A stretch of 64,000 bases of DNA from assembly GCA_964459095.1 (NCBI GenBank), contig CAYWKL010000002.1, positions 2,858 to 66,857 on the forward strand. The letters are read 5' to 3'. Made by a program: the position numbers and the translations under genes. Numbering within the stretch: position 1 is the stretch's first letter; each line of letters begins with the position of its first letter. Source of the stretch: an uncultured Gammaproteobacteria bacterium (GTDB lineage Bacteria > Patescibacteriota > Microgenomatia > Daviesbacterales > UBA10151). Positions 4,560-64,000 of this stretch are shown here, one piece after another. The notes below the pieces were generated by a model. The model did not search any database, was not told the DNA's origin, and worked only from the letters and a program-made list of their open reading frames with translations.

Positions 4560-4754
4560 GTGATAAGCATCAGTGAAGAGTTTGTTGATTTCATTGCTTT
4601 CTTGGATGATAATGAGGAAAAGAGAGAGTGGTATGTAAAGATAATTGAAGCCAGCCACTTTGTAACATTCATAACCAAGGACGGAAATACTGTTTCTATA
4701 CCCTCAAGCAGGGTTTTGAAGATAAAAAAGAGGAGAGTTGCTTCAGATGATTAG
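4560..4754 (+). CDS. Hypothetical small acidic protein overlapping the MCM start.
   Basis: ORF track only. Confidence 0.3.
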   Translation: MISISEEFVDFIAFLDDNEEKREWYVKIIEASHFVTFITKDGNTVSIPSSRVLKIKKRRVASDD

Positions 4755-7700
4755 TGAAAGAATATCTGAGTTTGCAGACTTCTTTGCAAAGAACTACATG
4801 GCGGAGCTGACACAAGCTAAAGGCTGCATCATAATATCATTCACAAGCCTGTCAGAATGGAATGTTGACTTGGCCAGTGAGCTTCTTGGTTCTCCCGAAG
4901 ATTATTTGAAGATGGCAAACAAGGCTATTCAAACGCTTATTGATGAAAGAGAGATAACAGTGAGATTCACAGGGCTTCCAAATACACAGAATAGGAATGT
5001 TTGGGAAACAAGAAAAGAGGATGTTGGCAAGTTTATTGCATTGACGGGCATAATCAACAAGTCATCCAGTATAATTCACTTATGTGAAACTGCAAAATTT
5101 GAGTGCTCGAATTGTGGAACGGTGATGTCTATTGTTCAGAATGACGGCAAGTTCACAGAGCCTTCCAAATGCAACTGCGGAAGAAAAGGAAAGATGAATT
5201 TGATTGACAAGGAATTCACGGACATAATCAAATTGGGAGTTATAGACGACCTCATGGCAAGGGAGAATGTGGACAGAAGTATCGCAAGAGAAAAGCTTGC
5301 AATATTATCGCAGGACCTGACTTCGCTCGAAGTTGACCAGAAGATAAAGCCAGGTAAAAAGGTAGTTCTAAACGGCTACTTCAAATATCAGCAGAAATCC
5401 GGCAGTGCAGAGTTTGATTCCATCTTCCACGTTAATTCAATGGAATTTGTGCAGGTTGGGTGGGACACTGTCAAGGTGAACACAATAGAAGAATCACAAA
5501 TTAAAATGTTGGCAAAACAGGATGATATAATAAACAGGCTGGCAGAATCAATTGCTGATGTTGAAGGATTTGCAGAGGCAAAAAAAGCATGCTTATTGAT
5601 GCTAGCTGGCGCCCCCCATAAATATGATGAAAATGGGCACCTTGTATCAAGAGGGACCACCCATATCCTGTTAATCGGCAATCCCGGAGGCGGGAAAACT
5701 TTCTTAGCCAAAAGAGCAGGTTCCATCTCTCCAGTCTATTCTTTTGCGTCTGCTGCGACAGCTTCCGGAAAAGGGCTTGTGGCTGCAGTCAGCCAGGATA
5801 AGGATATAGGCGCATGGGTTATATATCCAGGAGTTGTGGCAATGGCTAATAAGGGTGTGTGTATCTCAGGCAATCAAAAAATTATGACTAGCAGGGGACT
5901 TTTATCAATTAAAGATGTTAAGCAGGATGATAAGATATTATCTTTTGGTTTTGACGGTGTGAAGGAGAAGCATGTATCCGGACTTATTTTTAACGGGGTT
6001 AAGGAGGTTGTACAACTAACACTTTATTCAGGAGACACAATCACATGCACGCCGGACCATAGAATAATGACCAGTGGCGGATGGAAGCCTGCTGGAGACT
6101 TAACCACAAAGGATTATATCAAAAATTACTTTACTTCAATTACCAACTTTGAGAACAGAGAGGATATTGAAGATGGATGGCTTTTTGGATTTGCATTGTC
6201 AGATGTGTGGTACAACACCTCCTTAAAGAAGGGTTCCAAAAATTGTGTGCGAAATGTCATGTCTTACAGTTCTTCCATAATAAACAAAGAAAGGTCGGAA
6301 TATGTGCATAAACTGCTGATTGGAAGGGGAATCAGGAGTATACATGTTAAAAATATTCCTTCCAATAAGCATCTTGTAGCTGGAAAACAGCAGAAGTTTA
6401 AGGAAGGGGTTACTTATAGATTTTCAGATAAGAAGCTGCATAATGAAATAAAAGATATGATGGAGAGCAATCTCCTCGTAAAATCTACTGATGATTTTTA
6501 TGCTGGATTTTTAGCGGGTATTCTGAGTACAGATGCTTGCATTAGCCACAAGAAAGGAAAGTATGGGATTAAGCATGAAATAGCAGTGACTCTGACAAGA
6601 TACAACAAGTCCAGCCAAACAAAAGAATGGAACAGAAACATTCAGATATTAGTGAACTCATTATTTCATCGCTTTGGAATTTTAAGTTGTATCAGGGGGG
6701 ATAAAATTATAATATCATCACTTACAAGCTACAATCTTTGTGTATCACTGCTCAAAGAGTTTATGGTTGGCAAGAATAAGGAAAAGTTATACCACGTTTT
6801 ACCAAAAAAGAGGATAAGCAGCTATGATGACTGGATGGATGATGAATATGTAAAATGGTTTTGTTCAATCAAATTTAAAACAAGCAAAACTGTCAAATAC
6901 GGATTACATTCTTCTATATGGTACTCACGTAAAAAAAAGAGGGTAAGCTCGCAATTGATGAATATACTGTTCAAATTTTGGGAGGAGATAACAGACGAGG
7001 AGTTCTGGCCGCCTGCTAAGGATTATTTGTTAAACAAAATAATTTCTGTGGAGAGGGCGGGAAGCCAGGAGGTGTATGACATCACTATTCCTGAAAATCA
7101 TAATTTTATGTTGACTGGGGGGTTAGCCCATAATTGTGTCATTGATGAAGTGGATAAAACACATAAAGATGATTATGGGGACCATAACAACGCAATGAAT
7201 GATATGGAATGTTTGATAGCCAAGGGCAATGTGAAAGGGAAGCTGGAGACAGAAACAAGCTATTTGGCGACAGCAAACCCGGAAAACAGGATATTTTCCT
7301 CGTATGATACATATGCAAACCAGATAGATATGCCCAAGGATTTTCAGGATAGGTTTGACCTGATATTGCCGATGGTGTCCCCAACTGACAAAAAAGCCCA
7401 GGAAAAGATAATGGATATAATGCTTGGAAGACACACTGATGATAAAAGCAAAAAAAGCTGGAATCCGGAGTTTACCCATAATTTTATTCAGAAGTATGTG
7501 GCATATTGCAGAAGGAGTAATCCCAACCCAATATTATCTCCAGAATTGTTTGCATACATAAAGAAGAAACTCATTGAGCTGATGAAACCAAGAAGCGAGG
7601 AGCAGTCAATGATATCTTTCAGGCATCTTGAAAGCATACTAAGGTTTGAATATGGAGCAGCAAGGTTAAGGCTTAGGGATATAACTGAAGAAGATGTGGA

Positions 7701-8001
7701 CCTTGCGTTTAACCTCAAGAAGAAATCATTTATAGAGCTTGGGATAATATCAGAGGCAGGGGGATTCAGCTGGGCAAAGCTTGAGGAGGTAGAGGAAAAA
7801 GTTATATCTGAGAAAGAAATAATTCATAACATACTGAGGGAACTGATGCCAGATGGCAGCACCATGGCTGAATGGCACGAGATAATTAAGAGATGCACTG
7901 AGAAAGGGATAGAAGAGGATAAAGCTGAAGAGCACATCCAGAAGCTGATTACAAAGGGAGATTATTTTGAACCGAAGCGGGGATTCCTGAGGAGGATATG
8001 A
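4738..8001 (+). CDS. mcm: Archaeal-type MCM replicative helicase (662-aa extein) interrupted by a 425-aa intein. N-terminal C4 zinc finger (CSNCG...CNCG), Walker A GNPGGGKT, Walker B reconstituted as GVC|VIDEVDK, C-terminal winged helix.
   Basis: Motif match to the MCM AAA+ core. The ORF-track start at 4738 is TTG. A likely ATG start is 4747. Confidence 0.85.
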   Translation: MLQMISERISEFADFFAKNYMAELTQAKGCIIISFTSLSEWNVDLASELLGSPEDYLKMANKAIQTLIDEREITVRFTGLPNTQNRNVWETRKEDVGKFIALTGIINKSSSIIHLCETAKFECSNCGTVMSIVQNDGKFTEPSKCNCGRKGKMNLIDKEFTDIIKLGVIDDLMARENVDRSIAREKLAILSQDLTSLEVDQKIKPGKKVVLNGYFKYQQKSGSAEFDSIFHVNSMEFVQVGWDTVKVNTIEESQIKMLAKQDDIINRLAESIADVEGFAEAKKACLLMLAGAPHKYDENGHLVSRGTTHILLIGNPGGGKTFLAKRAGSISPVYSFASAATASGKGLVAAVSQDKDIGAWVIYPGVVAMANKGVCISGNQKIMTSRGLLSIKDVKQDDKILSFGFDGVKEKHVSGLIFNGVKEVVQLTLYSGDTITCTPDHRIMTSGGWKPAGDLTTKDYIKNYFTSITNFENREDIEDGWLFGFALSDVWYNTSLKKGSKNCVRNVMSYSSSIINKERSEYVHKLLIGRGIRSIHVKNIPSNKHLVAGKQQKFKEGVTYRFSDKKLHNEIKDMMESNLLVKSTDDFYAGFLAGILSTDACISHKKGKYGIKHEIAVTLTRYNKSSQTKEWNRNIQILVNSLFHRFGILSCIRGDKIIISSLTSYNLCVSLLKEFMVGKNKEKLYHVLPKKRISSYDDWMDDEYVKWFCSIKFKTSKTVKYGLHSSIWYSRKKKRVSSQLMNILFKFWEEITDEEFWPPAKDYLLNKIISVERAGSQEVYDITIPENHNFMLTGGLAHNCVIDEVDKTHKDDYGDHNNAMNDMECLIAKGNVKGKLETETSYLATANPENRIFSSYDTYANQIDMPKDFQDRFDLILPMVSPTDKKAQEKIMDIMLGRHTDDKSKKSWNPEFTHNFIQKYVAYCRRSNPNPILSPELFAYIKKKLIELMKPRSEEQSMISFRHLESILRFEYGAARLRLRDITEEDVDLAFNLKKKSFIELGIISEAGGFSWAKLEEVEEKVISEKEIIHNILRELMPDGSTMAEWHEIIKRCTEKGIEEDKAEEHIQKLITKGDYFEPKRGFLRRI
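5860..7134 (+). mobile_element. Intein (Cys1 ... His-Asn, +1 Cys) with a LAGLIDADG homing-endonuclease domain (LFGFALSDVWY, YAGFLAGILSTDACI), inserted in the MCM Walker B motif.
   Basis: Boundaries verified on the sequence: tgt at 5860-5862 begins CISGNQ..., and ...GGLAHN ends at 7134 followed by Cys. Splicing restores GVCVIDEVDK. Confidence 0.8.
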
Positions 8002-8690
8002 AGATGGATAAAAATAAAACACTAGTTATATTAAAAGGGTTACTATTATTTTTAGTGTTAAGCTTAATAATTCTAACTATCTTGTTTATTTATTTTAATA
8101 GCGAGTACCTTATCCAGAAATTTACACCCTATATTGATGAACCTCAACAATGCTTTTCAGTCTCCCAGGACTGCAGTGAATTTGCAGATAACCTGTCCTC
8201 AAAAGAGATTGACAGTTTGAAACTAGAGTATAACCAGCTAGTAACAAGATTTAATGATTTAATAAATGTTACCAATAGAGTATATGAAGAAAAAATATTT
8301 TGGAAAGAACAAGCGTTCAAGAAAGGAGATGGGAGAATGCTATGCTGGAATGAAAATACAGATGTTCCTGATAAAATATTGGATAAAAAGGAAGTGTGCA
8401 GGGAAGGATGCTACTATAAGATGCTATGCACAAACAGCATGAAGCCTTTGTTTGACTGCACGGATACACTGACGGTGTACACCAACCTAGAAGAGGATGA
8501 AATAGAGATGTGTGATGTGATAGGGTTTAGTACTCTGGAATATCCCGAATATGACTGGGTTGTTCATAGGGTGGTTAACATAACTGACGAGGGGTATGCA
8601 ACAAAAGGGGATGCTAACGCGTATCCTGACAGTTATATTGTTAAGTTTGAGGATGTAATATTTAAACTAATTGAGGTTAAGTACGGATGA
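7998..8690 (+). CDS. Type II membrane protein with a Cys-rich ectodomain.
   Basis: ORF track. N-terminal TM helix. Confidence 0.5.
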   Translation: MKMDKNKTLVILKGLLLFLVLSLIILTILFIYFNSEYLIQKFTPYIDEPQQCFSVSQDCSEFADNLSSKEIDSLKLEYNQLVTRFNDLINVTNRVYEEKIFWKEQAFKKGDGRMLCWNENTDVPDKILDKKEVCREGCYYKMLCTNSMKPLFDCTDTLTVYTNLEEDEIEMCDVIGFSTLEYPEYDWVVHRVVNITDEGYATKGDANAYPDSYIVKFEDVIFKLIEVKYG

Positions 8691-9622
8691 AAAAAGGAAA
8701 GAAATTTGAACATAAACAGGAATGTGATAGTTGCAAGACTAAATCTTGTTACAGACATTGTAATGAATATTCTGAATGTAGAGGAAAACATAAGAAAAAA
8801 GAGAATTGGTTTATGGAAATTAAAAAGTGTAACTTTTGTGATAATATTATTTATAAATCCGACAAACCAAAACAATTTCATTTAATTAAAACTTGTTTTA
8901 ATAAGGAATGCAAATTAAAACTTCATAGAATAAGTGCTAATAAATATTCACTAAAATTAAGAATATTAATACCAAGAAAAAATTGTGCATATTGTCAAAA
9001 AGAATACCAGCCTTATAAGGTAACAGGGAAAGTATGTTCTGATAATTGTGCAAAAAAATTATATGATTTAAATAACAAAGATAGCAAAAAATCAAGAAAT
9101 AGGGAGTATTGGCAAAGGAAAAAAGTGGAAGACCCAGATTATTTAAAACGATTATGGAAAAACAAATATCAAAAACGAAAATCTTATTATCTCATTTATA
9201 ATAAAAAAGTTTATGAAAAATTTAAAGATAAATACAGGCAAATTGAAAATAAAAGAAGGGAAAAATTAGGATTACCTTTAGTAAGTCATAATTATAAACG
9301 GGAGGTTGAATTAATTAAACGGATTTCTCAGTTATTTCCACAGGAAAAAATGAAAATACATGATAGGAGGACATTTAAAGGAGTAGAGTTAGACATACAT
9401 ATTCCTAACAAAAAACTCGTGGTTGAACATCAAGGTGTGCAACATTTTAAAGAAGTTCCATATTTTAAAAGTAATTCTTTAAAAAATAATCAAGCTAAGG
9501 ATGAATTAAGGAGAAAATTATGTATTCAAAATAATATTAAACTAATCGAAATAAATTATAATGATATTATATCTACAAATTTTATTATTAATAAACTAAA
9601 AGAGGTTGGAATTGATGCGTAA
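8687..9622 (+). CDS. Lys-rich protein with an N-terminal multi-Cys zinc-finger region and a C-terminal DUF559/Vsr-like PD-(D/E)xK endonuclease-like domain (GVELDIHIPNKKLVVEHQGVQHF).
   Basis: Motif resemblance to restriction-endonuclease-like DUF559 domains. Confidence 0.4.
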   Translation: MKKGKKFEHKQECDSCKTKSCYRHCNEYSECRGKHKKKENWFMEIKKCNFCDNIIYKSDKPKQFHLIKTCFNKECKLKLHRISANKYSLKLRILIPRKNCAYCQKEYQPYKVTGKVCSDNCAKKLYDLNNKDSKKSRNREYWQRKKVEDPDYLKRLWKNKYQKRKSYYLIYNKKVYEKFKDKYRQIENKRREKLGLPLVSHNYKREVELIKRISQLFPQEKMKIHDRRTFKGVELDIHIPNKKLVVEHQGVQHFKEVPYFKSNSLKNNQAKDELRRKLCIQNNIKLIEINYNDIISTNFIINKLKEVGIDA

Positions 9623-19026: not shown

Positions 19027-20856
19027 TTGTATTATCTGTATTACCTTGTTTCCAAAATGCATGAATCTGACTTTGCTTTGCAGTGGCTGGATTACCTAGG
19101 CAATGAAATATATAACAACGGAAAAAGGATATTTAAATATGAAGGCCAGCCCAAATACGATATTTCTAGGCTAATCAGCAGGATAAGGATTGGTGAGGAG
19201 CTTGGGTCTGAGAAGAATATAGAATACACATTTATGTCTTATTCTGAACTTCAGAAGGTGGGGTATGTTGTATTTGCCGGAACTGACCTTATCTGGAGGG
19301 AGAGGCAGCAGTATTATTACAAGCTAAAGAAGAGGGACAGGGACAGTGTAGGAATCAATGAAAAGGTCTTTGATAGGAAGCTTAAGGTTCAGCATGACCC
19401 CACAAACAGAAGAATTCGTTTGGTTGGGGAGGATGTGCTGCCACCACAAAAATCACCCATAAATTCAGGAGTAGGCCCCTGGATAGTTTACGACGCAGAT
19501 GCTCCAAAAGAAAGTGATACCCAGGCAAGAAGGGATTTCGCGCTCAGCAAGGAGGGAATCAGGGCATCCTTAAGGAAATGGCAGTATGGGGATAACAGCG
19601 AAGAAGCCGAATATGCTGAAATCAAGGAGCTTCCGATACTCCTGTCGGATGAAAAGTATATAGTATGCATACGGAAGAATATAGTATGCCAAAGGATTAT
19701 TGTGGTAGGGGAGCCGGGTTTTGGTAAATCAATTTGTTGCAACTCGCTTGCAGGAAGAATCTTCTATATATGGGAAGACAGAGTAGGGTGGCTCATTGAC
19801 CCGTTAAACCAGTTTAATGATATAAGCATGCCGCAGGCATTTGACAAGTTTAACAAGATAAATGCATTAATTAATAATGAGCCAAAGCCAATCCCGGCAA
19901 TTCAGTTGTATCTTGCATGTAAGCATAAAGTAGATATGAAAAATAAGGATATTAGCCTGCTGTTAACCTTAGATTTTCTGGAGTTTCTGAACAAATACAA
20001 ATTTTATACCTTTGGCATAAAGGATATGGATGTGGGAGACACTATAAGATACCTCATGGACTTTATTAAGGAGATAAAAGATGTTACTACTTCTGAGGAG
20101 ATAAGTGAGATAATGTTGGATAAGGTCCCAAATGCCCACAAGGATAAGGGAATGAAGGCTATGATATACAAATGGGCAAACACATTTGAGTATATATTTA
20201 AGGAGAAGTTTACTTCCAATATGTACTTGGATGACAAGAAAGCCGCCCATTCATTGCAGCTTAAGCTGAAAGATGGCACGGAGATGGAAGGCCACCCATT
20301 CATTATGTGCTATGAAGCAGGGTTAATTCCTGTTTTGAATATGTCAGCCGCGCGCCGCCAGAGATGGATAAGGAATTACCTTGCTGACCTTATGCAGAAG
20401 ATTGTAGCACATCAAAGCAATGTTCCTGAGGAAAGGAAGCACAGGGTGTGGATTATTGCTGACGAGCTGAATGAGATATATGAAATTGGAAAAAAGAAAG
20501 ACAATGCATTTTTAGCATTTGAAGAATTATTTAGGCAGGGAAGATTCAACAATATAGGGTTTATAGGGAATACGCAGTCTCTTGAAAAGCTGAATCCGGA
20601 GATGTACAAAAATGCAACACATATCTGCTGTGTTTATATGAAGGACTCAAAAGACAGGAAAAGGGTGGGGGATACTTACAATCTCGACAGGGAGGAATAT
20701 GACAAAATTGAGTCCCTCAAGGAGCAGGAGATGATGGTGTTCAGCAAGGAGCCTTTCATAACTTATGACAGGTGGGGCAAGAGGAGGGTTACAGACAGGA
20801 AATGGTTCAGGGGAAGGATACTGCCGCCTATAAACTTCCACAAGGTGCCGGGTTGA
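19027..20856 (+). CDS. HerA/FtsK/VirB4-superfamily P-loop ATPase (Walker A VVGEPGFGKS, Walker B WIIADELNE, downstream FIGNTQS sensor Gln).
   Basis: Motifs and wide Walker A-B spacing. The ORF-track start is TTG. A likely ATG start is 19057. Confidence 0.55.
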   Translation: MYYLYYLVSKMHESDFALQWLDYLGNEIYNNGKRIFKYEGQPKYDISRLISRIRIGEELGSEKNIEYTFMSYSELQKVGYVVFAGTDLIWRERQQYYYKLKKRDRDSVGINEKVFDRKLKVQHDPTNRRIRLVGEDVLPPQKSPINSGVGPWIVYDADAPKESDTQARRDFALSKEGIRASLRKWQYGDNSEEAEYAEIKELPILLSDEKYIVCIRKNIVCQRIIVVGEPGFGKSICCNSLAGRIFYIWEDRVGWLIDPLNQFNDISMPQAFDKFNKINALINNEPKPIPAIQLYLACKHKVDMKNKDISLLLTLDFLEFLNKYKFYTFGIKDMDVGDTIRYLMDFIKEIKDVTTSEEISEIMLDKVPNAHKDKGMKAMIYKWANTFEYIFKEKFTSNMYLDDKKAAHSLQLKLKDGTEMEGHPFIMCYEAGLIPVLNMSAARRQRWIRNYLADLMQKIVAHQSNVPEERKHRVWIIADELNEIYEIGKKKDNAFLAFEELFRQGRFNNIGFIGNTQSLEKLNPEMYKNATHICCVYMKDSKDRKRVGDTYNLDREEYDKIESLKEQEMMVFSKEPFITYDRWGKRRVTDRKWFRGRILPPINFHKVPG

Positions 20857-51949: not shown

Positions 51950-52150
51950 CTATTGCTTAATAGCCGATTGATTTTTTCGGCTATTATGTTTAGTGAGATT
52001 TTCTATCTTTTGTATTGCTTCTTTTTCAATTTGACACAATTTACAATTAGGGTCATTTCCAACATGAGGAACAAACTCTTCACCTTCAGATTCATGATAA
52101 CTCTCATTCCAAAAATCCCTTAATATTTGTCTTGCTTCTTTTATGTTCAT
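51950..52150 (-). CDS. Hypothetical small protein.
   Basis: ORF track. Confidence 0.35.
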   Translation of the reverse strand: MNIKEARQILRDFWNESYHESEGEEFVPHVGNDPNCKLCQIEKEAIQKIENLTKHNSRKNQSAIKQ

Positions 52151-52152
52151 AT

Positions 52153-52978: not shown

Positions 52979-52985
52979 TATTTCC

Positions 52986-53366: not shown

Positions 53367-53683
53367 TAGTTTGCAATTTCTGATAACCTACCAGATATAT
53401 GTTCTGGGTCATCGTTTACATTATTATAGCACCATCCATCTCTATACCACAAAACATAAAATAAAATCCCTGATGGGCTTTTAAAAATATCACCATCATA
53501 AACTTCTTTTTCATTCCTGTCCTTTAATCCAGTAAATTGTATAAGAATTAAATCTTTGTCTTCTTCAAAATCTCCGTTGTCATCATATATCCCAACTTTA
53601 CCATCCCATATAATATATCTATTACAACTATATTCTATTCTATTGTTTCGTTTATCCCAAGCCCTGAACTTAATTTCTCTCAT
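53315..53683 (-). CDS. YopX-family phage protein (MREIKFRAWDK ... IGNIYENPELVKE).
   Basis: N- and C-terminal YopX signatures. Paralog of 63311..63640. Confidence 0.75.
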   Translation of the reverse strand: MREIKFRAWDKRNNRIEYSCNRYIIWDGKVGIYDDNGDFEEDKDLILIQFTGLKDRNEKEVYDGDIFKSPSGILFYVLWYRDGWCYNNVNDDPEHISGRLSEIANYWKVIGNIYENPELVKE

Positions 53684-53943
53684 CCTCTTAACCTCTCAAT
53701 CACTTTCTCCTTTATATATTCATCAACATTCCTTTTAACACCGGGATATAAATTGTCAACTTGATTTAGTAATTCTTCTATAACATCTTTACCTAAATCC
53801 GCATCATGCAGGGCATCCACCCATTGTTCAGTTGTTAGATAACCCAACAAATAAACCAAAGTTAAGTTATCAGTTTCTATGTTCATTGTTTCAGCCTCAA
53901 TACAACTAATATCTTGTTTACTTTGTTTAAATCCAAAAACCAT
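53680..53943 (-). CDS. Hypothetical small protein.
   Basis: ORF track. Confidence 0.4.
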   Translation of the reverse strand: MVFGFKQSKQDISCIEAETMNIETDNLTLVYLLGYLTTEQWVDALHDADLGKDVIEELLNQVDNLYPGVKRNVDEYIKEKVIERLRG

Positions 53944-54209
53944 TTCAATGACCTATACCTCCCTCTGTAAAAATCTTCCACATCTTTCAACACCTTGCCA
54001 AACTCAACTAAACTTAAATCTTTAAATGTTGTAAATCCATGCATATTATGTACTGGAAGTATACTATCCATATCAAAGAATAGTTGTCCATTATACTTGT
54101 AGTCCTCTATATGTAAGACTCCTCTGCTGTTCTCAACATCTGCATATATCTTCCAGTTCTTCTGGGATTTTGCCTTTCCACGAATCCGGTAATGACCAAT
54201 CTCTTCCAT
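53883..54209 (-). CDS. Hypothetical protein.
   Basis: ORF track. Confidence 0.4.
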   Translation of the reverse strand: MEEIGHYRIRGKAKSQKNWKIYADVENSRGVLHIEDYKYNGQLFFDMDSILPVHNMHGFTTFKDLSLVEFGKVLKDVEDFYRGRYRSLKWFLDLNKVNKILVVLRLKQ

Positions 54210-54616
54210 TACTTAGTCAGCCTCTTTAAAGTCTCCTCCTTAATCAGCTCATTGAAAAACTTCTCCTGCGCCATCAGCACATCCTTGACTTTCTTCTTTG
54301 GCAGATGGGTCTTGTGTATAATATAAATCTCCAATACCTCCTTATTCAATCCACTACCCTTCTATAAATCAAAGGCATCCTTAATCGCCTTCAGCTGGTG
54401 GTTTAAGGTATCTATCCTTCCGTTGGTCATCATTCCTCCATAAACATTACTATCACTATAGATATAAAATATATTACTATGAACATCCTACCCCAAATTG
54501 TTAACATAGGGTTCCACCATTCCAGCAATAAAAACGAAATTATCAAATAAACAAATCCACCTAAAATAGATATTGCAAGCCCATACCCTACTCCCATTTT
54601 GTTCAACCTCCTCTAT

Positions 54617-54802
54617 TCATAAACTCTTACCCTCTTTCTTAACCTCAACATCAAAAACTATATTAACAACCCCCTTACCCTCTTTTATTGTTATCTTGTT
54701 TATGACTACAACACCCACACCCCAGCTGTTCTGCATTTTAAAAAAGTCTGCGAGATAATCACAGGCTCTCTCATCCAGCATAATCTCTTTTTCTTGCGTC
54801 AT
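54617..54802 (-). CDS. Hypothetical small protein.
   Basis: ORF track. Confidence 0.35.
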   Translation of the reverse strand: MTQEKEIMLDERACDYLADFFKMQNSWGVGVVVINKITIKEGKGVVNIVFDVEVKKEGKSL

Positions 54803-54910
54803 GGCTAATCATCCTCGTCATACTTTTCCAAATCTTCATCCTCATCATCTGTCTTGCTGTCATCAAATTCTTCATCATCCAACTTTAACATATTACATCA
54901 CCTCCTTCTT

Positions 54911-55369
54911 TTAGTTGCTAATCCTCGGCGCTAATATTATTATCATCTCGGCTGTTTCTACATACAAAGGATAATCCTTTCTGAACTTAAATATTACCTC
55001 ATCTGATTTTGTGTTGGTGCACAACTTCAAAATTAATTTTATATATTCCTTAGATAACCTAACAGAATTCTCATCAAACTTGCTTGTTGTGCCTTCCAAC
55101 CTTGCAAATACTTTAATCTTATCTTGGTTACCTTCTATAAAATGTATACCATAACTTAAATTTGGAATTTTATTAACTGGGTTAAAATTAAAGTTCTGCT
55201 CTATCATATCCCTAATCCCCCTAAGTTTAGGGATAACCATCATAACATTAGCAGGGTCATTATAACCAACATATTCTTCTTTCGGAATAACCTCCTCGTT
55301 AATTATCTTAGGCATAAATATATTCTGAAAATCCCTTATCAACTCAAACCTGTCTTTCTTTGTTGTCAT
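54911..55369 (-). CDS. Hypothetical protein.
   Basis: ORF track. Confidence 0.45.
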   Translation of the reverse strand: MTTKKDRFELIRDFQNIFMPKIINEEVIPKEEYVGYNDPANVMMVIPKLRGIRDMIEQNFNFNPVNKIPNLSYGIHFIEGNQDKIKVFARLEGTTSKFDENSVRLSKEYIKLILKLCTNTKSDEVIFKFRKDYPLYVETAEMIIILAPRISN

Positions 55370-55746
55370 CCTTTCAGCCTCGTTATAACAAGCTGCTTAA
55401 ATATCTCGTGCTTTAACTTTTCCCTTGATGTAATGTTCAACTCAACCAGTTCGCATTTCTGCGGGTTTAAAATCATCTCCAGTATAAACCTTAAATCATC
55501 TTCTGATTTCGGGATGTACAAAGGAATACTCTTCCTGTTAAAACTTAGGTTGCCCCATCCATCCTTAGTCTCTTTCTTCATCATAAATAAAATAATATTA
55601 TCCTCATCCTTGTGAAACCTAAACATATTTCCTTTTGTAGAGTTTCCTATATATATAAAATTTTTATACTTCCCATACCCTAATCTATAAAATAATTTGT
55701 ATTTCTTGTTGTTATCATAAAAATATCCTAATGTTGACTTAGCCAT
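55366..55746 (-). CDS. Hypothetical protein.
   Basis: ORF track. Confidence 0.45.
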   Translation of the reverse strand: MAKSTLGYFYDNNKKYKLFYRLGYGKYKNFIYIGNSTKGNMFRFHKDEDNIILFMMKKETKDGWGNLSFNRKSIPLYIPKSEDDLRFILEMILNPQKCELVELNITSREKLKHEIFKQLVITRLKG

Positions 55747-56000
55747 CAGCTCAGCCTCTGTATCACCCTGTCTTTAGTCTTGCTTCTCAACCTGTTCAAC
55801 ACCTTGTTAATCAATGAAAGCCTTAACTTATGCATACTTCTTCTGCCTACCAATAAGCCCTCTCCACATCTTAGACAATAGGTTAAGAAACTTGAACCTC
55901 CCCTCTGCTCCTCTATCTTGTATGTTTTGGCAGGCACTTCTTTGCCGCATTTGCACTTAAAACCCTTAGGACTCTTCACACATCTATACATATCTGTCAT
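55746..56000 (-). CDS. Zn-ribbon protein.
   Basis: ORF track. Confidence 0.45.
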   Translation of the reverse strand: MTDMYRCVKSPKGFKCKCGKEVPAKTYKIEEQRGGSSFLTYCLRCGEGLLVGRRSMHKLRLSLINKVLNRLRSKTKDRVIQRLS

Positions 56001-56145
56001 TACAATCCTCCACTAATAATCTCCTGGTATACTTTCCAGCAATTATCACACACACTTCCTAAATCAGGAATGGTTCCAGCTATGCTTGTCGGCTCCATAT
56101 GCTTCCTGCACTTTGCGCAGGTTCTATCAAATTCCATATTCTTAA

Positions 56146-56367
56146 TCACCTCTTCAGCCTTTCCAATACCAACTTCTTAGGAAACTTGCTCTTTAACATA
56201 CTTAGGAATACCTCCAATTCATCTATCTCTTCCTTTATCCTGAAATATCCGCAGGGGATGCAGTAATTACTGCCACCAAAATTAACTCTCAAAGAACCTT
56301 CACTAAAAAGCAATTGCTTGCATTCATGGCAATTGTGTGTGCGCTTCACTTTCTCAAGATTAGCCAT
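56146..56367 (-). CDS. Zn-ribbon protein.
   Basis: ORF track. Confidence 0.45.
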   Translation of the reverse strand: MANLEKVKRTHNCHECKQLLFSEGSLRVNFGGSNYCIPCGYFRIKEEIDELEVFLSMLKSKFPKKLVLERLKR

Positions 56368-56836
56368 TCTTCCTCTTCATTCCCTTAATCTTATCTTTCA
56401 GCCAATCAAATATAGAATATTTATACAACCAGATTTCTCTCGGAACTTTAGTGCAGTTAGCAATTATCTTCTGGACTTCCTCAACTGCATACTTGCTGTA
56501 GGATTCCTTGTTGGTAAACCTTGCGACGATAAACCCTTTCTTGACAGCATACCTCCACTTGATATAACCCTTAGCTGCCCTCTCTTCTAATTTATGAATT
56601 TCTCCATCAACCTCTATAAGTATCGGATAAGCTAAAATTTTAATATCAAATTCGTAGTCTCCAACCCTGAACTGCGGAATCACTGCTATGCCTGCTTTAA
56701 TCAAGTTATTTCCAAAAGCATTCTCAGAGGGAGTAACAGTATTCTCCCGGTTAACCAGCTCACCGGATTTTGCCAGCTGCCTCTTGATGTCGTCATAAGA
56801 CATCTTCTTCTTCAGCAATTCGGTTACTTCTTCCAT
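56360..56836 (-). CDS. DUF559/Vsr-like PD-(D/E)xK endonuclease-domain protein (YEFDIKILAYPILIEVDGEIH).
   Basis: Motif resemblance. Second such domain in the window. Confidence 0.45.
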   Translation of the reverse strand: MEEVTELLKKKMSYDDIKRQLAKSGELVNRENTVTPSENAFGNNLIKAGIAVIPQFRVGDYEFDIKILAYPILIEVDGEIHKLEERAAKGYIKWRYAVKKGFIVARFTNKESYSKYAVEEVQKIIANCTKVPREIWLYKYSIFDWLKDKIKGMKRKNG

Positions 56837-57156
56837 TATGAACCTTTCTTTAAAATTACATCTTTCATCTTGTCAAGATTATTAATAACATCTTCTGCAA
56901 CAGCAATCATTCCTTCAAACTTATCAGCATATTCCTGATTTACAGGTTCTGTTGTCTCTAATTTGTTAACCTTTTGCCTTAGTGCATCCTGCAAAATATT
57001 AATCTCGTCAATAACACTATCCGAAGGAATCCATTTCTTCCCCTTGAATTCAGTATAATCTTCTGACAACCAAGTTTGCCTATCATCATCATAAGTTTGG
57101 CAATTATCAAATAACCTAATTAGTTCATCACTAATTTCCTCACTTGTTCTCATCAT
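56836..57156 (-). CDS. Hypothetical acidic protein.
   Basis: ORF track. Confidence 0.4.
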   Translation of the reverse strand: MMRTSEEISDELIRLFDNCQTYDDDRQTWLSEDYTEFKGKKWIPSDSVIDEINILQDALRQKVNKLETTEPVNQEYADKFEGMIAVAEDVINNLDKMKDVILKKGS

Positions 57157-57402
57157 ATCACCACCTCAAATTAAAGTGAAAGGCAATCTTGCAAGGCACA
57201 TCCAAAGATAATTAGGTGGGTTTGTTTAATGATTGGCCCATTATCTCGCTTCAACCTTTTGCATTGTCTTCCACAATAAACAGTAATACCTAAACTTGTA
57301 TAAATACTTTGTTAATAAGGAACTTGCGAGGCTGGGCAGAATTCTCATATAAAACGTTGGGGAACGGTTATGAAAAATCAGAATCCCAATCCTGTCGCAT
57401 CC

Positions 57403-57594
57403 TTATTCCTCTTCTTCCTCCCAGTCATAATCTTCAGGAAACTCTCCAGGTTCCATAGTAAATCCTTCTACTGCATTCTCCCATGCTTCGTCTGGATTAT
57501 GACCATATCCGCTAAGCTCCAGCTTGAATATGTACCTTCCATACTCCTGACCTTTCAACCGTCTTATAACCTTTGCTTTGTCTGATTCAATCAT
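57403..57594 (-). CDS. Small acidic protein.
   Basis: ORF track. Confidence 0.35.
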   Translation of the reverse strand: MIESDKAKVIRRLKGQEYGRYIFKLELSGYGHNPDEAWENAVEGFTMEPGEFPEDYDWEEEEE

Positions 57595-57832
57595 ATTTAA
57601 AATTTCCTAGTTCTTCTAATTGTTCAATATGTTCAAAAACAATATGATTTATCAACCTTACACAAACTTGGCATAAATCTGGCTGTTTGTTAAACCCACC
57701 ATTATTAAATAAATCATCTGTCTCTTTTGCCCACAAATATCCAGGGTATTCCTCAAAGTTATGAAACTCCATAATCTCTTTTTTATTTCTTCTGCATACA
57801 TAACATCTTCTTTCTTCCATCTTCTTACTCAT
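57587..57832 (-). CDS. Zn-ribbon protein.
   Basis: ORF track. Confidence 0.4.
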   Translation of the reverse strand: MSKKMEERRCYVCRRNKKEIMEFHNFEEYPGYLWAKETDDLFNNGGFNKQPDLCQVCVRLINHIVFEHIEQLEELGNFKYD

Positions 57833-58709
57833 TCATCTTCACTTTCATTCCAAACGGCACCCAATTAGGGTTTCCAATATCCTTTCTGATATATTCAATA
57901 AATTCATCTTCTGATAAATCTTGTTTGCTAGAATTATGAGATAAACAAGCAGGGACTATATTCTTAACGACAGTCTTTCCATTCTTATTAACAGATATCA
58001 AGTGGTCCATAGTTAACTCTTGAGTTTTTATAAATCCTTCTTCATGTCGTTTATATAACTTACATCCACAATAATAACATCTACCCTCATACTTATTCAA
58101 AATAGTTTTCCATTCCTCTTCATCAAAGTTAAGCTTAACCTCTTTAGCCCTTCGTTTAGCCTCATATAACACTAATTTAAATTTATTTTTTTGTTTCCAC
58201 CTTCTATTTATCTCCGAGTGTTTATCTTTATTATTTCTCTTCCACTCTCTCAATCGTTTAAGTTCCTTATCTCTATGCTTATTTATCCAATTAATGTATC
58301 CAATTTTTCTCCTTATTGGATTATTCTTAAGATATTCTCTTGATTTTTGATACATCACATCCCTATTCTTAAGATAATAATTTTTGTGTAATATACTAAA
58401 TTTATATTTCCTAATATAATTCATAGCACTCGTCCTAAAATGTTTTCTCTTATTAATCTCCTTACATAACAAACTTCCACATTTGTCGTTGCTATATCTT
58501 ACTTTAAATGGATATCCGCACTCTTGACACAATTTTATTGTTGATAATTTATGTTCCCTATAATACTGCTTATACTCATCTATATTTAAATAATATAATT
58601 GCTTCCTTCTATCCAAAATAGATAACTCCCTACATAATTTACTTCCAAACATCTCAAAAGGATGTTGTTGAATAAACTGCTGACCACATCGCCTGCATTC
58701 TTTAATCAT
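57825..58709 (-). CDS. HNH endonuclease with N-terminal Zn ribbons (CYYCGCKL...LTMDHLISVNKNGKTVVKNIVPACLSHNSSK).
   Basis: HNH motif. Confidence 0.65.
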   Translation of the reverse strand: MIKECRRCGQQFIQQHPFEMFGSKLCRELSILDRRKQLYYLNIDEYKQYYREHKLSTIKLCQECGYPFKVRYSNDKCGSLLCKEINKRKHFRTSAMNYIRKYKFSILHKNYYLKNRDVMYQKSREYLKNNPIRRKIGYINWINKHRDKELKRLREWKRNNKDKHSEINRRWKQKNKFKLVLYEAKRRAKEVKLNFDEEEWKTILNKYEGRCYYCGCKLYKRHEEGFIKTQELTMDHLISVNKNGKTVVKNIVPACLSHNSSKQDLSEDEFIEYIRKDIGNPNWVPFGMKVKMNE

Positions 58710-58893
58710 TCTTCCAATTGTAGTAACCTATTGATAATTTCATCATAAGTTTCTCTTGATGTAATTCTCATCTTCTTTAATCTTTCAAGAGTCTTATGCT
58801 CAATCTGGATTGTCGTCCTTTGTTTCATACATAACCTCCACATAAGAAATACATAACTTATATTTATACTTTGTGGTTAAGATGTCAATTAAA

Positions 58894-61218
58894 TTAATCA
58901 TTCATTTTAACTTTCATTCCGAAAGGAACTTTGTCTAAATCTACACCATCTTTTGTTATTACCCATAATGTGGGATACTTCATCTTATCTGGCCATGGGG
59001 TGTACCCATCAGTAAAAATAATAACTACTGAGGGATTAATTCGTCTTTTAGCAATCTCATCTATAGCAACTCGTAAATCAGTTCCGCCCATTCCCTTATA
59101 CTCTCTCCTTATTTCATCCCCTTGATTATACTGGTGATGGGAAGTCACTTGAACGTCTGTCGTTAATAAGTGTAAATTCATCTCAAACTGCTGCAGCAGC
59201 CCATTGCACTCTGACAGGAACTGCTGTTGCGCTTTGCCGCCGGTAGAGCCTGAAACATCCACGATGACAGTAACATCCCCCAGGCTCTCACCAGTAATAG
59301 AAGGCATATACATATCCTGGTGTATAAACCTGCGATTAGATGGGAGCCAACTGAAATCAGACTTTGCTGAAGTAATCACAAACTGCCTCAGCATATTCCT
59401 CCAATCCAGCTTTGGAGCCAATAATTGCTCAATGAACACATCCATCCCAGCAGGCAGTTTCCCTGCCATCTTTGCCTGTTGCCATGCCTTTGACAACTGT
59501 ATTGCCCATTCCTTCTCAAGCTCATCCAACTCCTGCTTTGAGCCTTGAATATCCTTATGAACATCAAAAGGCTTGACTTCCTGTCCGTTTACCTTAATGT
59601 TGCCTTTGGCGTCTATCTCAATCTTTATGTCTCCCTTCTCGTATCTTCTGTAGCCGTTCTTGCCTTTGCCGTTCATCTCAGGCAGCTTGTTGTAGATTTC
59701 CTCTGCGGTCATATTCTCAAACTTCTCGTTGTATAGTCCGCCTTCAGGAACAAAATTAAACTCTTTCTTGAGGATAGCGTTGATGACAAAGTCACAATTA
59801 TGAACCACAACATTATTTACCATATAATTATGATTTTCTGTAGATAAATTATAAACTATTCCACTATACGTCTCTTTTTCTATTTTGACAATAGGGGTTA
59901 CAAAATAATTTCCTAAATCTTTCCACCTATAATTGTTACTATCAATAGTTTTACCATTTAGTATTCGAGTGGTAGTCTTAAATTTCCTCCATTCTAAACA
60001 ATATAGAATTTGTTTGGGAAGTATATGTTTTAGAATCATTCTCTCATCTTTCTTCCTCACACTAAAATTGCTAAAAATATCTAAACGAGTAAGCAACATT
60101 TGTAGTTGTAGAATCAACTTCTTGCTTGCTGAACCTACAAAGGTAGTAGTCCCATCTCTGTATATATGTCCATCTCCACAAACATATCCATCAATAAACT
60201 CTTTAATTATTTCCTCATCTTTATTATACAATATAAAATCTGGAATCTTCTTGTTTTTAGCACCCCTACCAAACCAATCAGTAAACGCCCTCTCTAGCAG
60301 TACACTGGATATATTTAATTTTATAACATTCCCCCTATCCTCTCTTTGAATATGTGTGTTAAAATTATTATTAACAATCTTATAAATTTTATCTAAATAT
60401 TTCTCATCTGTTTTCCCTAATCCTAAATTAAACCCTTGATTGCCACTTGAACTGCCTTCAGCAAGATATAATCCCATCAACCAAGCAACATCTTTATTAA
60501 GTATAATCTTCTTGTTCTTAATATTATGTCCATATCTATGAGTCTCTTTAGCATATTTAATTAAATCAAATTCATTAGGTGTTTCTCTTGGTTTAAGTTT
60601 AGGCATCACTAAATAACAATTCTTATCAAGGTCTTTAGCCCCAACCCATTCAAATCTCTTCTTAAATGTTATTGGATTCCCTATTTTCCTTCCTCTTCTC
60701 AAAATCAAAAAGGGATGTTCAGGGGTAACTTTAATCTCCCCTATTCCATTCGCTTTAATTTTATATAAATCACCAGAATATTCCCGTTTCATAACATCAT
60801 TAACTTTATTGTTTCCTTCAAAACATAATATGTCTTGGTCTACCTTAACATTCTTGATTTCTTCATAATCGCCAGATACTACAGTCTCTGATGTAAAGCA
60901 TGCAAAATTCCAGCGTTCAGGCTCTCGCTCCCCCATCCTTATCCCATGTAAAAACACATTATGGAGTACTTCATGCCCCAAAACAAATATTTTATCTTTG
61001 TCACTCAAGCTCTCCGCAAATTCTTTATTATAATATACCCTTTTGTAATCTGTAGCAAATGTGGGTATACTATTATCTTCAACCATCGGCAAATGTAACG
61101 CCAAATTTCCATAAAACGGAAAATCTAAGAGAAGAGCTATTCTTGCTTTAATCAAAGAATCTTTAAGATTCATCTCACACCTCGCCAAACCTCTGAGTTG
61201 CAAACAACCAAAACTCAT
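58894..61218 (-). CDS. DUF2201-type putative metallopeptidase (HEVLH) plus vWA (MIDAS DVSGST) protein, interrupted by a 368-aa intein. The extein is about 406 aa. An alternative start is Met16 at 61173.
   Basis: HExxH motif, N-terminal PFYGNLALHL pattern, C-terminal vWA-like DxSGS...TDG. Intein boundaries verified on the sequence. Confidence 0.75.
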   Translation of the reverse strand: MSFGCLQLRGLARCEMNLKDSLIKARIALLLDFPFYGNLALHLPMVEDNSIPTFATDYKRVYYNKEFAESLSDKDKIFVLGHEVLHNVFLHGIRMGEREPERWNFACFTSETVVSGDYEEIKNVKVDQDILCFEGNNKVNDVMKREYSGDLYKIKANGIGEIKVTPEHPFLILRRGRKIGNPITFKKRFEWVGAKDLDKNCYLVMPKLKPRETPNEFDLIKYAKETHRYGHNIKNKKIILNKDVAWLMGLYLAEGSSSGNQGFNLGLGKTDEKYLDKIYKIVNNNFNTHIQREDRGNVIKLNISSVLLERAFTDWFGRGAKNKKIPDFILYNKDEEIIKEFIDGYVCGDGHIYRDGTTTFVGSASKKLILQLQMLLTRLDIFSNFSVRKKDERMILKHILPKQILYCLEWRKFKTTTRILNGKTIDSNNYRWKDLGNYFVTPIVKIEKETYSGIVYNLSTENHNYMVNNVVVHNCDFVINAILKKEFNFVPEGGLYNEKFENMTAEEIYNKLPEMNGKGKNGYRRYEKGDIKIEIDAKGNIKVNGQEVKPFDVHKDIQGSKQELDELEKEWAIQLSKAWQQAKMAGKLPAGMDVFIEQLLAPKLDWRNMLRQFVITSAKSDFSWLPSNRRFIHQDMYMPSITGESLGDVTVIVDVSGSTGGKAQQQFLSECNGLLQQFEMNLHLLTTDVQVTSHHQYNQGDEIRREYKGMGGTDLRVAIDEIAKRRINPSVVIIFTDGYTPWPDKMKYPTLWVITKDGVDLDKVPFGMKVKMND
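59797..60900 (-). mobile_element. Intein (CFTSETVV ... VVVHN, +1 Cys) with a LAGLIDADG homing endonuclease (LMGLYLAEGS, FIDGYVCGDG) inside the metallopeptidase-vWA gene.
   Basis: RC of gca at 60898-60900 gives Cys1. RC of att at 59797-59799 gives the terminal Asn, followed by Cys. The extein junction ERWNFA|CDFVINAIL is contiguous. Confidence 0.75.
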
Positions 61219-61354
61219 CTGAATTCATTTTCTGATTTAGTGCCGGATTAAGTATTATCTTATGGTGTTTCCCTCTTACTCTATCCCACTCCAACAAAAC
61301 CAAATCCTTACCTACCATATCTTTTGTTACTATCATCCTTCTTTCACCTCATTC

Positions 61355-61729
61355 TTATACTAAATCTCCTTCTGCGATAATACTTGCAATATAATCATTA
61401 CTACCCGACATTTTGTAAACTTTAAGTATGGCTAATCTTAGTTCTTCAATCTGCTCATCATTAAAATCTTCAGACCAAAATCTATCAAGTTTCTCCTTAT
61501 CCTTTACAAATTTGCTTAATAATTTAGAAACATTAATAACATCTTCCGGATAATCAACAATTTTGGTAAAATTATATTTACTCTCATTAACGTAGTAATA
61601 ATCCTTTAGTTCTGTGTCATCTTCAACAGGTTTCTTCATGTATCTCCTAAAATCATCTTCTACTCTTATCTGTTCTTCTTGTTTTAACTCATTCCACTTC
61701 TTATAAAATTTTACCTTAACCACCTCCAT
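61355..61729 (-). CDS. Hypothetical protein.
   Basis: ORF track. Confidence 0.45.
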   Translation of the reverse strand: MEVVKVKFYKKWNELKQEEQIRVEDDFRRYMKKPVEDDTELKDYYYVNESKYNFTKIVDYPEDVINVSKLLSKFVKDKEKLDRFWSEDFNDEQIEELRLAILKVYKMSGSNDYIASIIAEGDLV

Positions 61730-61886
61730 CCACCTCCTCTCTCTTCACAAACCAGTCAGTATTCCTTAACTTCCCGCCGCACATAGGGCATACTATTGCA
61801 TCTATGTTGCTCCCAGTATACCCACAAAACTTGCCATCCTGGTTTCGGTTATGGCACTGATACAACTCTTTATCTTTCATTATTGT

Positions 61887-62135
61887 TCACCTTAATGTAA
61901 CCTCTCTCATAAATTTATTAGCACTTGCCTTTGTAAATAATTTATCAAAATCATTCTTTTCAATAAATACAACAAACACCTCGTCCCTCAACCTCCTTAT
62001 TCTGTGTATCATCTTTATTGCACTATTCTTGTTATTCACATTTGCGCATACTTCTAATGTTCTCTTTAACCTATCTTTCAGTTCTCTTTCACTTATCTTC
62101 CTATCCCCTAATATATTTAATTCATCTTTCTTCAT
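61887..62135 (-). CDS. Hypothetical small protein.
   Basis: ORF track. Confidence 0.4.
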   Translation of the reverse strand: MKKDELNILGDRKISERELKDRLKRTLEVCANVNNKNSAIKMIHRIRRLRDEVFVVFIEKNDFDKLFTKASANKFMREVTLR

Positions 62136-62316
62136 CTTCTCTTACCTCTTTAATCCCTTCTATAGCCTGCTCGATGTCAGTCATCTTCATGACAATCCCG
62201 AACAATGCCAGCACTTGTATGGACTGCAAAATTGTCCATCCGAAAAACTGCGGACCCACAAGCATTACCACAAACCCACTGACAATAAAAATTCCATGCC
62301 TCCAATCCTTGTTCAT
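62122..62316 (-). CDS. Small two-TM protein.
   Basis: ORF track. Confidence 0.4.
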   Translation of the reverse strand: MNKDWRHGIFIVSGFVVMLVGPQFFGWTILQSIQVLALFGIVMKMTDIEQAIEGIKEVREDEER

Positions 62317-62573
62317 TTTCTCTCCCTCTCCTTAAGTTTATTCCATTGACTATCACATTTACTCAATGCTTTCATCAGCAAATCTAATTCATCATTATTA
62401 AATGTAAATCCAAAATATTTCTGCTTCTTGTTCCACTCTTTCATAAACTTAGATTTTGGCAATGTTATGGTTATTCCTTTCTTGTTCAAATAAATCTTTG
62501 AGTCATCTTCATAAGTTAACCTCATAATATTACCATACTCCTTATGCACACAATAAGTTACATCTGCTTTCAT
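62313..62573 (-). CDS. Hypothetical small protein.
   Basis: ORF track. Confidence 0.4.
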   Translation of the reverse strand: MKADVTYCVHKEYGNIMRLTYEDDSKIYLNKKGITITLPKSKFMKEWNKKQKYFGFTFNNDELDLLMKALSKCDSQWNKLKERERK

Positions 62574-62908
62574 CCTTTCAGCCTCCTTAATACAAATGAT
62601 TTATCTACCTGTAAAAATAAGTTATCTACCTTTTTAAAGTCAATATCCGCCAACCCGTCCTTGACTAACAATTTTAACTCTGACATAGCTCTCTCCCTTT
62701 CCCTCAAACTATACACTCCAAGATTGTTTCCTTCACCAACCCACCTTGAAGCGTACCCTCTATTCCAAAACTCATTGTTAACCATATAAAAATCAACTTG
62801 TTCACAAACAACCTGAATCACCCACATCAGCCTGTCATCTGCAAAGTTCTCCAGCCAAATCGGAAACTTCCTATTATCAACCAATAGATTGCCTACTTTG
62901 GATTTCAT
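62570..62908 (-). CDS. Hypothetical protein.
   Basis: ORF track. Confidence 0.45.
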   Translation of the reverse strand: MKSKVGNLLVDNRKFPIWLENFADDRLMWVIQVVCEQVDFYMVNNEFWNRGYASRWVGEGNNLGVYSLRERERAMSELKLLVKDGLADIDFKKVDNLFLQVDKSFVLRRLKG

Positions 62909-63086
62909 TGTATTAAACCCTCACAAAACTAAAACATAATAAATAACATAAACCCATCCTAAAATCCCATGAATGATAACCCACAATACAGATTTATTTA
63001 AACTCCATGATATTGTTACTGCAATAGCGCTTCCCAAACTGATTCCCGTTTCTTTCCACATCTTAACCTCATACACTTCTATTAAT

Positions 63087-63314
63087 TCATTTAATCTCTT
63101 CTATTCTCCACTCCCTTTCTGATGTTCCAGCATAAAAATTAGTTGTGTGAAATTTTCCAAATAATTTAATAAAAATTCTATGAAGATTTGGTTTATCTGA
63201 TACAAACTGCTGAAATTCCTTTGAAAGCCATTTGTCATTGGCTAATTTAATTAACCACCCTAATTCATTACCCTTTAAGGAAACTACCTGTTTTAATTGA
63301 TTAGATGATTTCAT
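63087..63314 (-). CDS. Hypothetical small protein.
   Basis: ORF track. Confidence 0.4.
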   Translation of the reverse strand: MKSSNQLKQVVSLKGNELGWLIKLANDKWLSKEFQQFVSDKPNLHRIFIKLFGKFHTTNFYAGTSEREWRIEEIK

Positions 63315-63640
63315 TTCATCAACTCCGGATTTTCATAAATGTTGCCGATAACCTCTCTCCAATCTAAATTTGAACCAAACATAAATTGGGGTAGCTGTCT
63401 AATATCTTCAATAACAATTTCATGCATATCTTCTCCATCATGCCTTGAGCATAACACAATATCCCCTTCATAAATCTCTTTTCCATTCTTGTCTTTGATA
63501 CCTGTGAATTGCATAACTACTCCCATAGACTCAAAAAGTTCTTTCCAGGATATCCCACTATCCATTGTTTCGATGAATGATTCCCAATCAAACATCCTTT
63601 TATCTTCTCTACCAATACCTCTAAATTTAATCTCCCTCAT
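63311..63640 (-). CDS. YopX-family phage protein (MREIKFRGIGRE ... IGNIYENPELMK).
   Basis: YopX signatures. Paralog of 53315..53683 with DNA-level similarity at the 3' end. Confidence 0.75.
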   Translation of the reverse strand: MREIKFRGIGREDKRMFDWESFIETMDSGISWKELFESMGVVMQFTGIKDKNGKEIYEGDIVLCSRHDGEDMHEIVIEDIRQLPQFMFGSNLDWREVIGNIYENPELMK

Positions 63641-63834
63641 TTCATCAGCCTCAGCAAAACCTTATATTTATCTCTTTCTTCTTTGGATAATCTAAATGGT
63701 AACAACTTACCATACATCCAAGAGTTCCTACCTTCACTTTTATATCCCTTAAATTTTATACATACTTCACTTAAAAATTTACTTTGAGTTTGAAAATGTT
63801 TATTGTCCTTGCTTAACCAAAAATAATTTGGCAT
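63637..63834 (-). CDS. Hypothetical small protein.
   Basis: ORF track. Confidence 0.4.
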   Translation of the reverse strand: MPNYFWLSKDNKHFQTQSKFLSEVCIKFKGYKSEGRNSWMYGKLLPFRLSKEERDKYKVLLRLMK

Positions 63835-63842
63835 CTTTAAAT

Positions 63843-64000
63843 CAAACCTCTTCCCTGAGCTTTATGTTCTATTTCTGTATGCTCTAAAAAGAAATTCATC
63901 TTTGCAAAGCTATGCCCATACCTACATTTAGAGCATTCATAAAACACCCACCATTGTTTGCCTGCTGCGTCTTTCAATCCAGCGTTATGCTCATAGCCCA
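63843..64000 (-). CDS. Partial CDS (C-terminal ~52 aa; the N-terminus lies beyond the right edge) with a C2H2-like zinc finger (YECSKCRYGHSFAKMNFFLEHTEIEH).
   Basis: Manual minus-strand translation. Not in the ORF track because it is cut by the edge. Confidence 0.35.

Follow-up and report, generated by a model that had tools for sequence, protein, structure and literature searches.

A LAGLIDADG intein beside the catalytic motif of a predicted metallopeptidase/vWA protein in a putative viral genome

The 64,000-nucleotide stretch of contig CAYWKL010000002.1 analysed here (positions 2,858 to 66,857 of the forward strand; assembly GCA_964459095.1), called the window in what follows, contains a gene for a DUF2201-type metallopeptidase/vWA protein that is interrupted by an in-frame insert. 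With a probability of roughly 85 %, this insert is a canonical class-1 intein that has an active-looking LAGLIDADG homing endonuclease and has settled in the peptidase active-site region of a vWA co-chaperone, which itself belongs to the MoxR-type AAA+/vWA module of a tailed, probably archaeal virus. The DUF2201 host family is missing from published intein surveys, yet in public metagenomes inteins are found in it repeatedly.

An earlier, sequence-only reading had proposed an intein of 368 amino acids with a LAGLIDADG nuclease and the junctions ERWNFA/C...HN/CDFVINAIL (a slash marks a splice junction throughout). Size, nuclease and boundaries have all been borne out. The elements of the intein are the following:

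59797..60900, minus strand: the intein, 368 amino acids (Pfam Intein_splicing, junction residues)
60877..60900, minus strand: intein block A with Cys1
60715..60726, minus strand: intein block B, TPEH (TxxH)
60166..60480, minus strand: core of the LAGLIDADG homing endonuclease (Pfam LAGLIDADG_3)
60451..60480, minus strand: LAGLIDADG motif 1, LMGLYLAEGS
60166..60198, minus strand: LAGLIDADG motif 2, FIDGYVCGDGH
59839..59868, minus strand: intein block F, YSGIVYNLST
59797..59811, minus strand: C-terminus of the intein, VVVHN, followed by Cys+1

In Pfam, the insert matches Intein_splicing (PF14890) at 1.5e-15, with 57.8 bits against a cut-off of 35.8, and LAGLIDADG_3 (PF14528) at 1.8e-12, with 47.8 bits against a cut-off of 22.5. 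Every residue required for splicing is in place, which confirms, at the level of the sequence, a canonical class-1 intein. An acidic residue is kept in each of the two LAGLIDADG motifs and the homing endonuclease looks active. A sequence search of the PDB gives as nearest solved structure PI-PkoII, the Pol intein of Thermococcus kodakarensis (2cw7), at 6.5e-10, the match spanning the endonuclease region and block F/G. PI-PkoII and the V-ATPase inteins (7qsu, 7qss) likewise have a two-motif LAGLIDADG endonuclease nested in a Hint splicing domain. However, the similarity is low, and these inteins reside in classical targets, namely a DNA polymerase and an ATPase, whereas the window intein resides in a metallopeptidase/vWA protein.

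The precursor gene and its parts are arranged as follows:

58894..61173, minus strand: precursor gene, DUF2201_N metallopeptidase plus vWA, intein-interrupted, 759 amino acids (open reading frame list, Pfam, identity to the public protein P0134)
60901..61173, minus strand: N-extein, 91 amino acids
60946..60975, minus strand: HEVLHNVFLH in the N-extein (HExxH plus an invariant His)
60901..60915, minus strand: RWNFA, the last residues of the N-extein
58897..59796, minus strand: C-extein, 300 amino acids (remainder of the peptidase domain, linker, vWA domain)
59779..59796, minus strand: CDFVIN, with the +1 Cys that opens the C-extein
59245..59259, minus strand: metal ion-dependent adhesion site (MIDAS) motif DVSGS in the C-extein
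58894..58896, minus strand: stop codon of the precursor gene

The longest open reading frame (ORF) in the ORF list, 58894..61218 on the minus strand, would encode 774 amino acids. The true start is nevertheless very probably the ATG at 61173 rather than at 61218, because a GAGGTG Shine-Dalgarno sequence lies 4 nt upstream, the homologues begin with MNLKD, and the public NCBI protein P0134, identical to the window precursor, is the 759-amino-acid form. The host had been described as a DUF2201/vWA protein with a split HExxH domain, and a Pfam search with the ORF upheld this. DUF2201_N (“putative metallopeptidase”) matches at 4.2e-36 (125.4 bits against a cut-off of 23.2) in two separate stretches and DUF2201 (“VWA-like”) at 1e-17 (64.8 bits against 26.4), and the extein contains both the HExxH zinc motif and the MIDAS motif (DxSxS...T...D), as expected for this family. 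The HExxH region also resembles minigluzincin and M48-type zinc peptidases such as the MJ1213 “selecase” (4qhf), an M48 enzyme (3c37) and BepA, but this profile match is weak (E about 1e-4) and confined to a zinc-binding segment of about 45 residues. Unlike these peptidases, DUF2201_N has an invariant A-x-D-xxx-N motif of its own, and it is here that the intein is located.

The spliced extein of 391 amino acids aligns over its full length with 25 homologues that lack the intein and measure about 390 amino acids; the best of them, P0001, is 82 % identical. Across this alignment, invariant residues comprise H67, E68 and H71 of HExxH, H76, R79, A91, D93 and N97, and in the MIDAS motif D271, S273, S275, T330 and D354. 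The intein sits between the invariant Ala91 and Asp93, some 20 residues past HExxH, at a position that is variable (I/T/V/G/A/C) in the intein-less proteins and is taken by the +1 Cys in the window. In the AlphaFold2 model of the 82 %-identical intein-less homologue, HExxH lies in a helix formed by residues 60–75 and the insertion site in the helix that comes next (87–106). From this we infer that the peptidase domain of the precursor is broken beside its catalytic motif and that splicing is needed to rebuild it.

Splicing would follow the usual course. An N-S acyl shift at Cys1 of the translated precursor would be followed by trans-thioesterification onto Cys+1, cyclisation of Asn368 and an S-N shift, thereby rejoining ...RWNFA-CDFVINA... 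and restoring the helix beside the HExxH helix; the peptidase/vWA protein would thus be functional only once spliced. The LAGLIDADG enzyme, for its part, would act on DNA, cutting the intein-less alleles of co-infecting relatives, and repair would copy the intein together with flanking extein sequence into the cut allele.

How common such an arrangement is depends on where one looks. In an exhaustive HMMER search of 1.84 billion cluster representatives with the intein and its 25-amino-acid flanks as query, the best 149 matches were examined, and 55 of these representatives are DUF2201 proteins into which related inteins are inserted. At least 33 metagenomic DUF2201 proteins share the exact junction WNxA/C...HN/CD, with inteins of 354–435 amino acids that are 29–54 % identical to that of the window. 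When aligned, these 33 allelic inteins all keep C1, TxxH, the two LAGLIDADG motifs, block F and HN, and 32 of them have Cys at +1. Ranked by intein sequence alone, matches 2 to 13 are all DUF2201 proteins (match 1 being the query's own protein); eleven of the twelve show this same junction in the output, while P0150 has a different insertion point. On its sequence, then, the window intein belongs to a diverse family that occupies one site in DUF2201 proteins of uncultured viruses. Among its members, P0135, P0136, P0137, P0140 and P0141 share with the window the host family, the junction WNxA/C...HN/CDxxxN and a full-length LAGLIDADG intein (354–435 amino acids). Their inteins are 40–54 % identical to the window intein; they are thus diverged from it (none exceeds 54 %), lie on other contigs, and no published description of them was found. 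P0141 is encoded directly downstream of an AAA_5 ATPase.

Mapping onto the extein profile reveals at least seven further insertion points near this site: just before HExxH, inside it (HEx/CH), three residues after it and around WNxAxD. These points fall within about 30 residues, and their carriers are P0135, P0209, P0168, P0213, P0261, P0160, P0163, P0205, P0207, P0203, P0150 and P0164. Two inteins each are present in P0135 (1193 amino acids) and P0209 (1133 amino acids), the second one of P0135 being inside HExxH.

Word-index searches, made with the spliced extein and with the intein alone, had suggested that the window intein was unique, a view overturned by the exhaustive search. With the intein alone, the best word-index match was only 33 % identical, in unknown, SufB or ribonucleotide reductase hosts. 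These searches missed all 55 intein-bearing DUF2201 proteins and even the query's own P0134, and their silence is therefore no evidence of rarity.

The initial description of a vWA/metallopeptidase protein as an uncommon intein site is consequently right as far as publications and deposited phage genomes go, but does not apply to metagenomes. A literature search found no paper combining an intein with DUF2201, and searches pairing inteins with vWA or MoxR likewise brought up no published case of an intein in a protein of these kinds. The main texts of Novikova et al. (PMC4760082), of Kelley et al. (PMC5050341) and of a 2025 actinophage survey (bioRxiv 10.1101/2025.01.02.630785) mention no peptidase, vWA or MoxR host. 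Of 50,697 GenBank phage records, 809 have DUF2201 genes, each matching as a single place, and the allelic intein is absent from all the records searched. No match to GenBank phages was obtained by megablast with positions 52000–64000 of the window, and scans of IMG/VR, JGI metagenomes and GTDB genomes for close relatives found none.

A MoxR ATPase together with a vWA protein bearing an N-terminal metallopeptidase has been described as a chaperone/co-chaperone pair of jumbo phages, for which a role in virion assembly and proteolytic processing was proposed (Iyer et al. 2021, PMC7824862). By analogy, such a role is the best available guess for the extein considered here. No intein has been reported in the jumbo-phage pair or in the characterised NorQ/NorD and RavA/ViaA systems, and all of these include the ATPase, whereas the window shows the vWA gene alone. 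The sequence-only reading had remarked that the MoxR partner was not adjacent. This is correct within the 64-kb window, where no MoxR-like ATPase was detected: three partner ATPases, combined into a profile, yielded no match better than E=0.03, and Walker A motifs occur only in MCM, the large terminase TerL and an ORF of 206 amino acids. As a true absence it is doubtful, since the position of the ATPase in relatives falls past the end of the window.

These relatives are the contigs carrying P0001 (L001–L004), which are syntenic with the window on both flanks of the gene, the neighbouring proteins being 59–93 % identical and most of them above 80 %. An AAA/AAA_5 ATPase is found upstream of the vWA gene at 2.5 kb in L001, at 0.2 kb in L005 and immediately adjacent in L007. 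In L001–L004, the gene 2.5 kb upstream encodes a protein of 752 amino acids in which a LAGLIDADG intein splits the Walker A motif (GAVGIGK/C...HN/SS). With the intein removed, this protein is recognised by Pfam AAA and AAA_5 and is, in L001, 80 % identical to the intein-less 337-amino-acid ATPase of L005/L006, where one small ORF separates the ATPase from the downstream vWA gene. In L007/L008, an unrelated lineage, the vWA gene itself has an intein and comes directly after the gene of a 756-amino-acid AAA_5 protein with an intein in sensor-2. The two intein-bearing partner ATPases are:

L001:5228-7486, plus strand: partner ATPase with its Walker A motif split by an intein
L007:5720-7990, plus strand: partner ATPase with sensor 2 split by an intein (NPR/C...GN/SW)

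The window ends (64000) inside the homologue of L001:8175-8462. Because it stops about 0.7 kb before the syntenic ATPase position, the missing ATPase is most likely an edge effect, with the partner probably lying just outside. A derivation of the window intein from that of the L001 partner ATPase was considered and ruled out, the two having no significant similarity.

The comparison with L001, the closest relative, also bears on how the intein was acquired. L001 has an uninterrupted site, GCG/ATTGAC, which reads with its flanks GAACGCTGGAATTTAGCG directly followed by ATTGACTTTGCCACGAACGCC, and the presence of the intein differs among close relatives. Along the spliced window gene, nucleotide identity to L001 is about 60 % over nt 1–270, that is, the whole N-extein, about 80 % over nt 270–360 and about 90 % over nt 360–960; it is 62–70 % over nt 960–1176. 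The gene downstream of the vWA gene is 87 % identical to its L001 counterpart. The GC content of the intein is 30.3 % against 42.7 % for the C-extein. Such a mosaic fits an intein that came from a diverged donor and brought adjoining extein sequence with it, as expected if homing was accompanied by co-conversion.

Upstream of the vWA gene, two ORFs on the minus strand, 61355..61729 (124 amino acids) and 61887..62135 (82 amino acids), have no counterpart in L001–L004 and belong to the divergent tract of the N-extein; neither has a Pfam match.

Selfish DNA appears to have reached the other end of the gene as well. A cassette absent from L001 directly follows the vWA gene:

57825..58893, minus strand: inserted cassette of about 1.07 kb, directly 3' of the vWA gene (ORF list, comparison with L001)
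58706..58828, minus strand: DUF7557 ORF, 40 amino acids, its stop overlapping the start of the HNH ORF
57825..58709, minus strand: HNH endonuclease ORF, 294 amino acids

The HNH ORF closes with 11 codons (57828..57860, VPFGMKVKMNE) that duplicate the C-terminus of the vWA protein (58897..58929, VPFGMKVKMND). The distal copy differs from the L001 DNA at 6 of 36 positions and the proximal copy at 10 of 36. The cassette looks like the insertion of a free-standing homing endonuclease that brought along a recoded replacement of the 3' end of its target. The 62–70 %-identical part just mentioned corresponds to roughly the final 210 nt of the vWA gene, beside the cassette.

Several points weigh against the interpretation as a mobile intein in the co-chaperone of a viral ATPase module. 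Splicing and endonuclease activity are both deduced from residues, and the host protein is a predicted peptidase with a putative role in assembly. For the window genome itself the ATPase partner is not visible; it is seen in relatives. The 5' divergent tract, moreover, extends about 1.2 kb past the gene and includes the two ORFs absent from L001. Plain modular recombination between viral lineages could explain the mosaic without homing and, because this tract is so long, module exchange stays an alternative to homing.

In a different view, the virus would have recruited the intein as a switch, with conditional splicing (e.g., redox control through a Cys1/Cys+1 disulfide) holding the metallopeptidase inactive until a given stage of infection. 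An insertion beside the catalytic HExxH helix, which should leave the precursor inactive, would suit this purpose, and the nucleophile and the +1 residue are both Cys, as in 32 of the 33 alleles; in addition, inteins occur at at least eight active-site points and also in Walker A and sensor-2 of the partner ATPase. However, such clustering is normal for purely selfish inteins since conserved DNA makes a good homing target. The full-length LAGLIDADG domain in all alleles argues for ongoing mobility and not domestication, and the closest relatives manage without the intein. A regulatory function is thus unlikely.

Decay of the intein or of its host gene might also be supposed: the insert would have lost the ability to splice, and the vWA gene would in effect be a pseudogene in this virus. 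The gene has after all been struck twice by selfish DNA, with the intein inside it and the HNH cassette next to its 3' end, and no partner ATPase is seen in the window. Against this, the frame of 759 codons is unbroken, all catalytic splicing residues and both endonuclease acidic residues are intact, the invariant extein residues are all retained, including HExxH, D93, N97 and those of the MIDAS motif, and the HNH cassette provides recoded last 11 codons, so that the C-terminus of the vWA protein is preserved. Decay is accordingly quite improbable. That the insert is no true intein at all but a chimera created in assembly or a bacterial intein-like (BIL)/Hint domain is hardly credible: P0134 is seen on a single contig, of 86,411 bp, but the insert has a His-Asn end followed by Cys+1, a nested LAGLIDADG endonuclease and a precise in-frame position relative to the intein-less homologues, its junction is common to at least 33 independent metagenomic proteins, and the flanking genes are syntenic with independent assemblies.

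The window intein is mechanistically ordinary and leaves the understanding of intein mechanism unchanged. What it adds is a non-replicative host, a metallopeptidase/vWA co-chaperone repeatedly struck in uncultured viruses, to the list of known intein hosts, and this bears on the debate over the clustering of inteins in particular protein networks. There is perhaps an even chance that the MoxR-ATPase/peptidase-vWA module of uncultured viruses, archaeal ones included, is an unrecorded intein hot spot, with at least eight insertion points in DUF2201_N and others in Walker A and sensor-2 (PRSW) of the ATPase. If so, the module would join replication and packaging proteins among the preferred intein targets, and this would argue for its strong conservation and its importance to these viruses. 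For annotation, DUF2201 proteins of about 760–800 amino acids and adjoining “AAA_5” proteins of about 750 amino acids should be taken as intein-containing precursors and not as novel fusions. Finally, the intein-plus allele of the window and the intein-minus allele of L001, about 90 % identical in mid-gene, would constitute a natural pair for tests of homing and co-conversion in what is probably an archaeal virus.

The assignment of the genome draws on other parts of the window. It encodes a large terminase (19027..20856, phrog_2666) and no tRNA genes were found in it; the window most likely represents a tailed archaeal virus or provirus. Among named cellular proteins, those closest to the extein of its MCM helicase are homologues, 31–33 % identical, from DPANN archaea (Woesearchaeota, Pacearchaeota, Nanoarchaeota), a similarity that gives a weak hint of an archaeal host. 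The MCM gene (4738..8001, plus strand) contains the first intein of the window, located at Walker B (KGV/C...AHN/CVIDEVDK). A kinship between this intein and that of the vWA gene was considered and rejected: only block F/G matches (32 % over 44 amino acids), which points to independent acquisitions. Two genes after MCM, an ORF of 311 amino acids (8687..9622, plus strand) matches HNH, intron-encoded and homing endonuclease families of the PHROG database. With the vWA intein, the MCM intein and the HNH cassettes, the window genome is rich in selfish elements. The cumulative GC skew peaks near 32 kb, where the coding strand switches from plus (3–32 kb) to minus (32–64 kb), and the window is thus organised in two divergently oriented gene arms.

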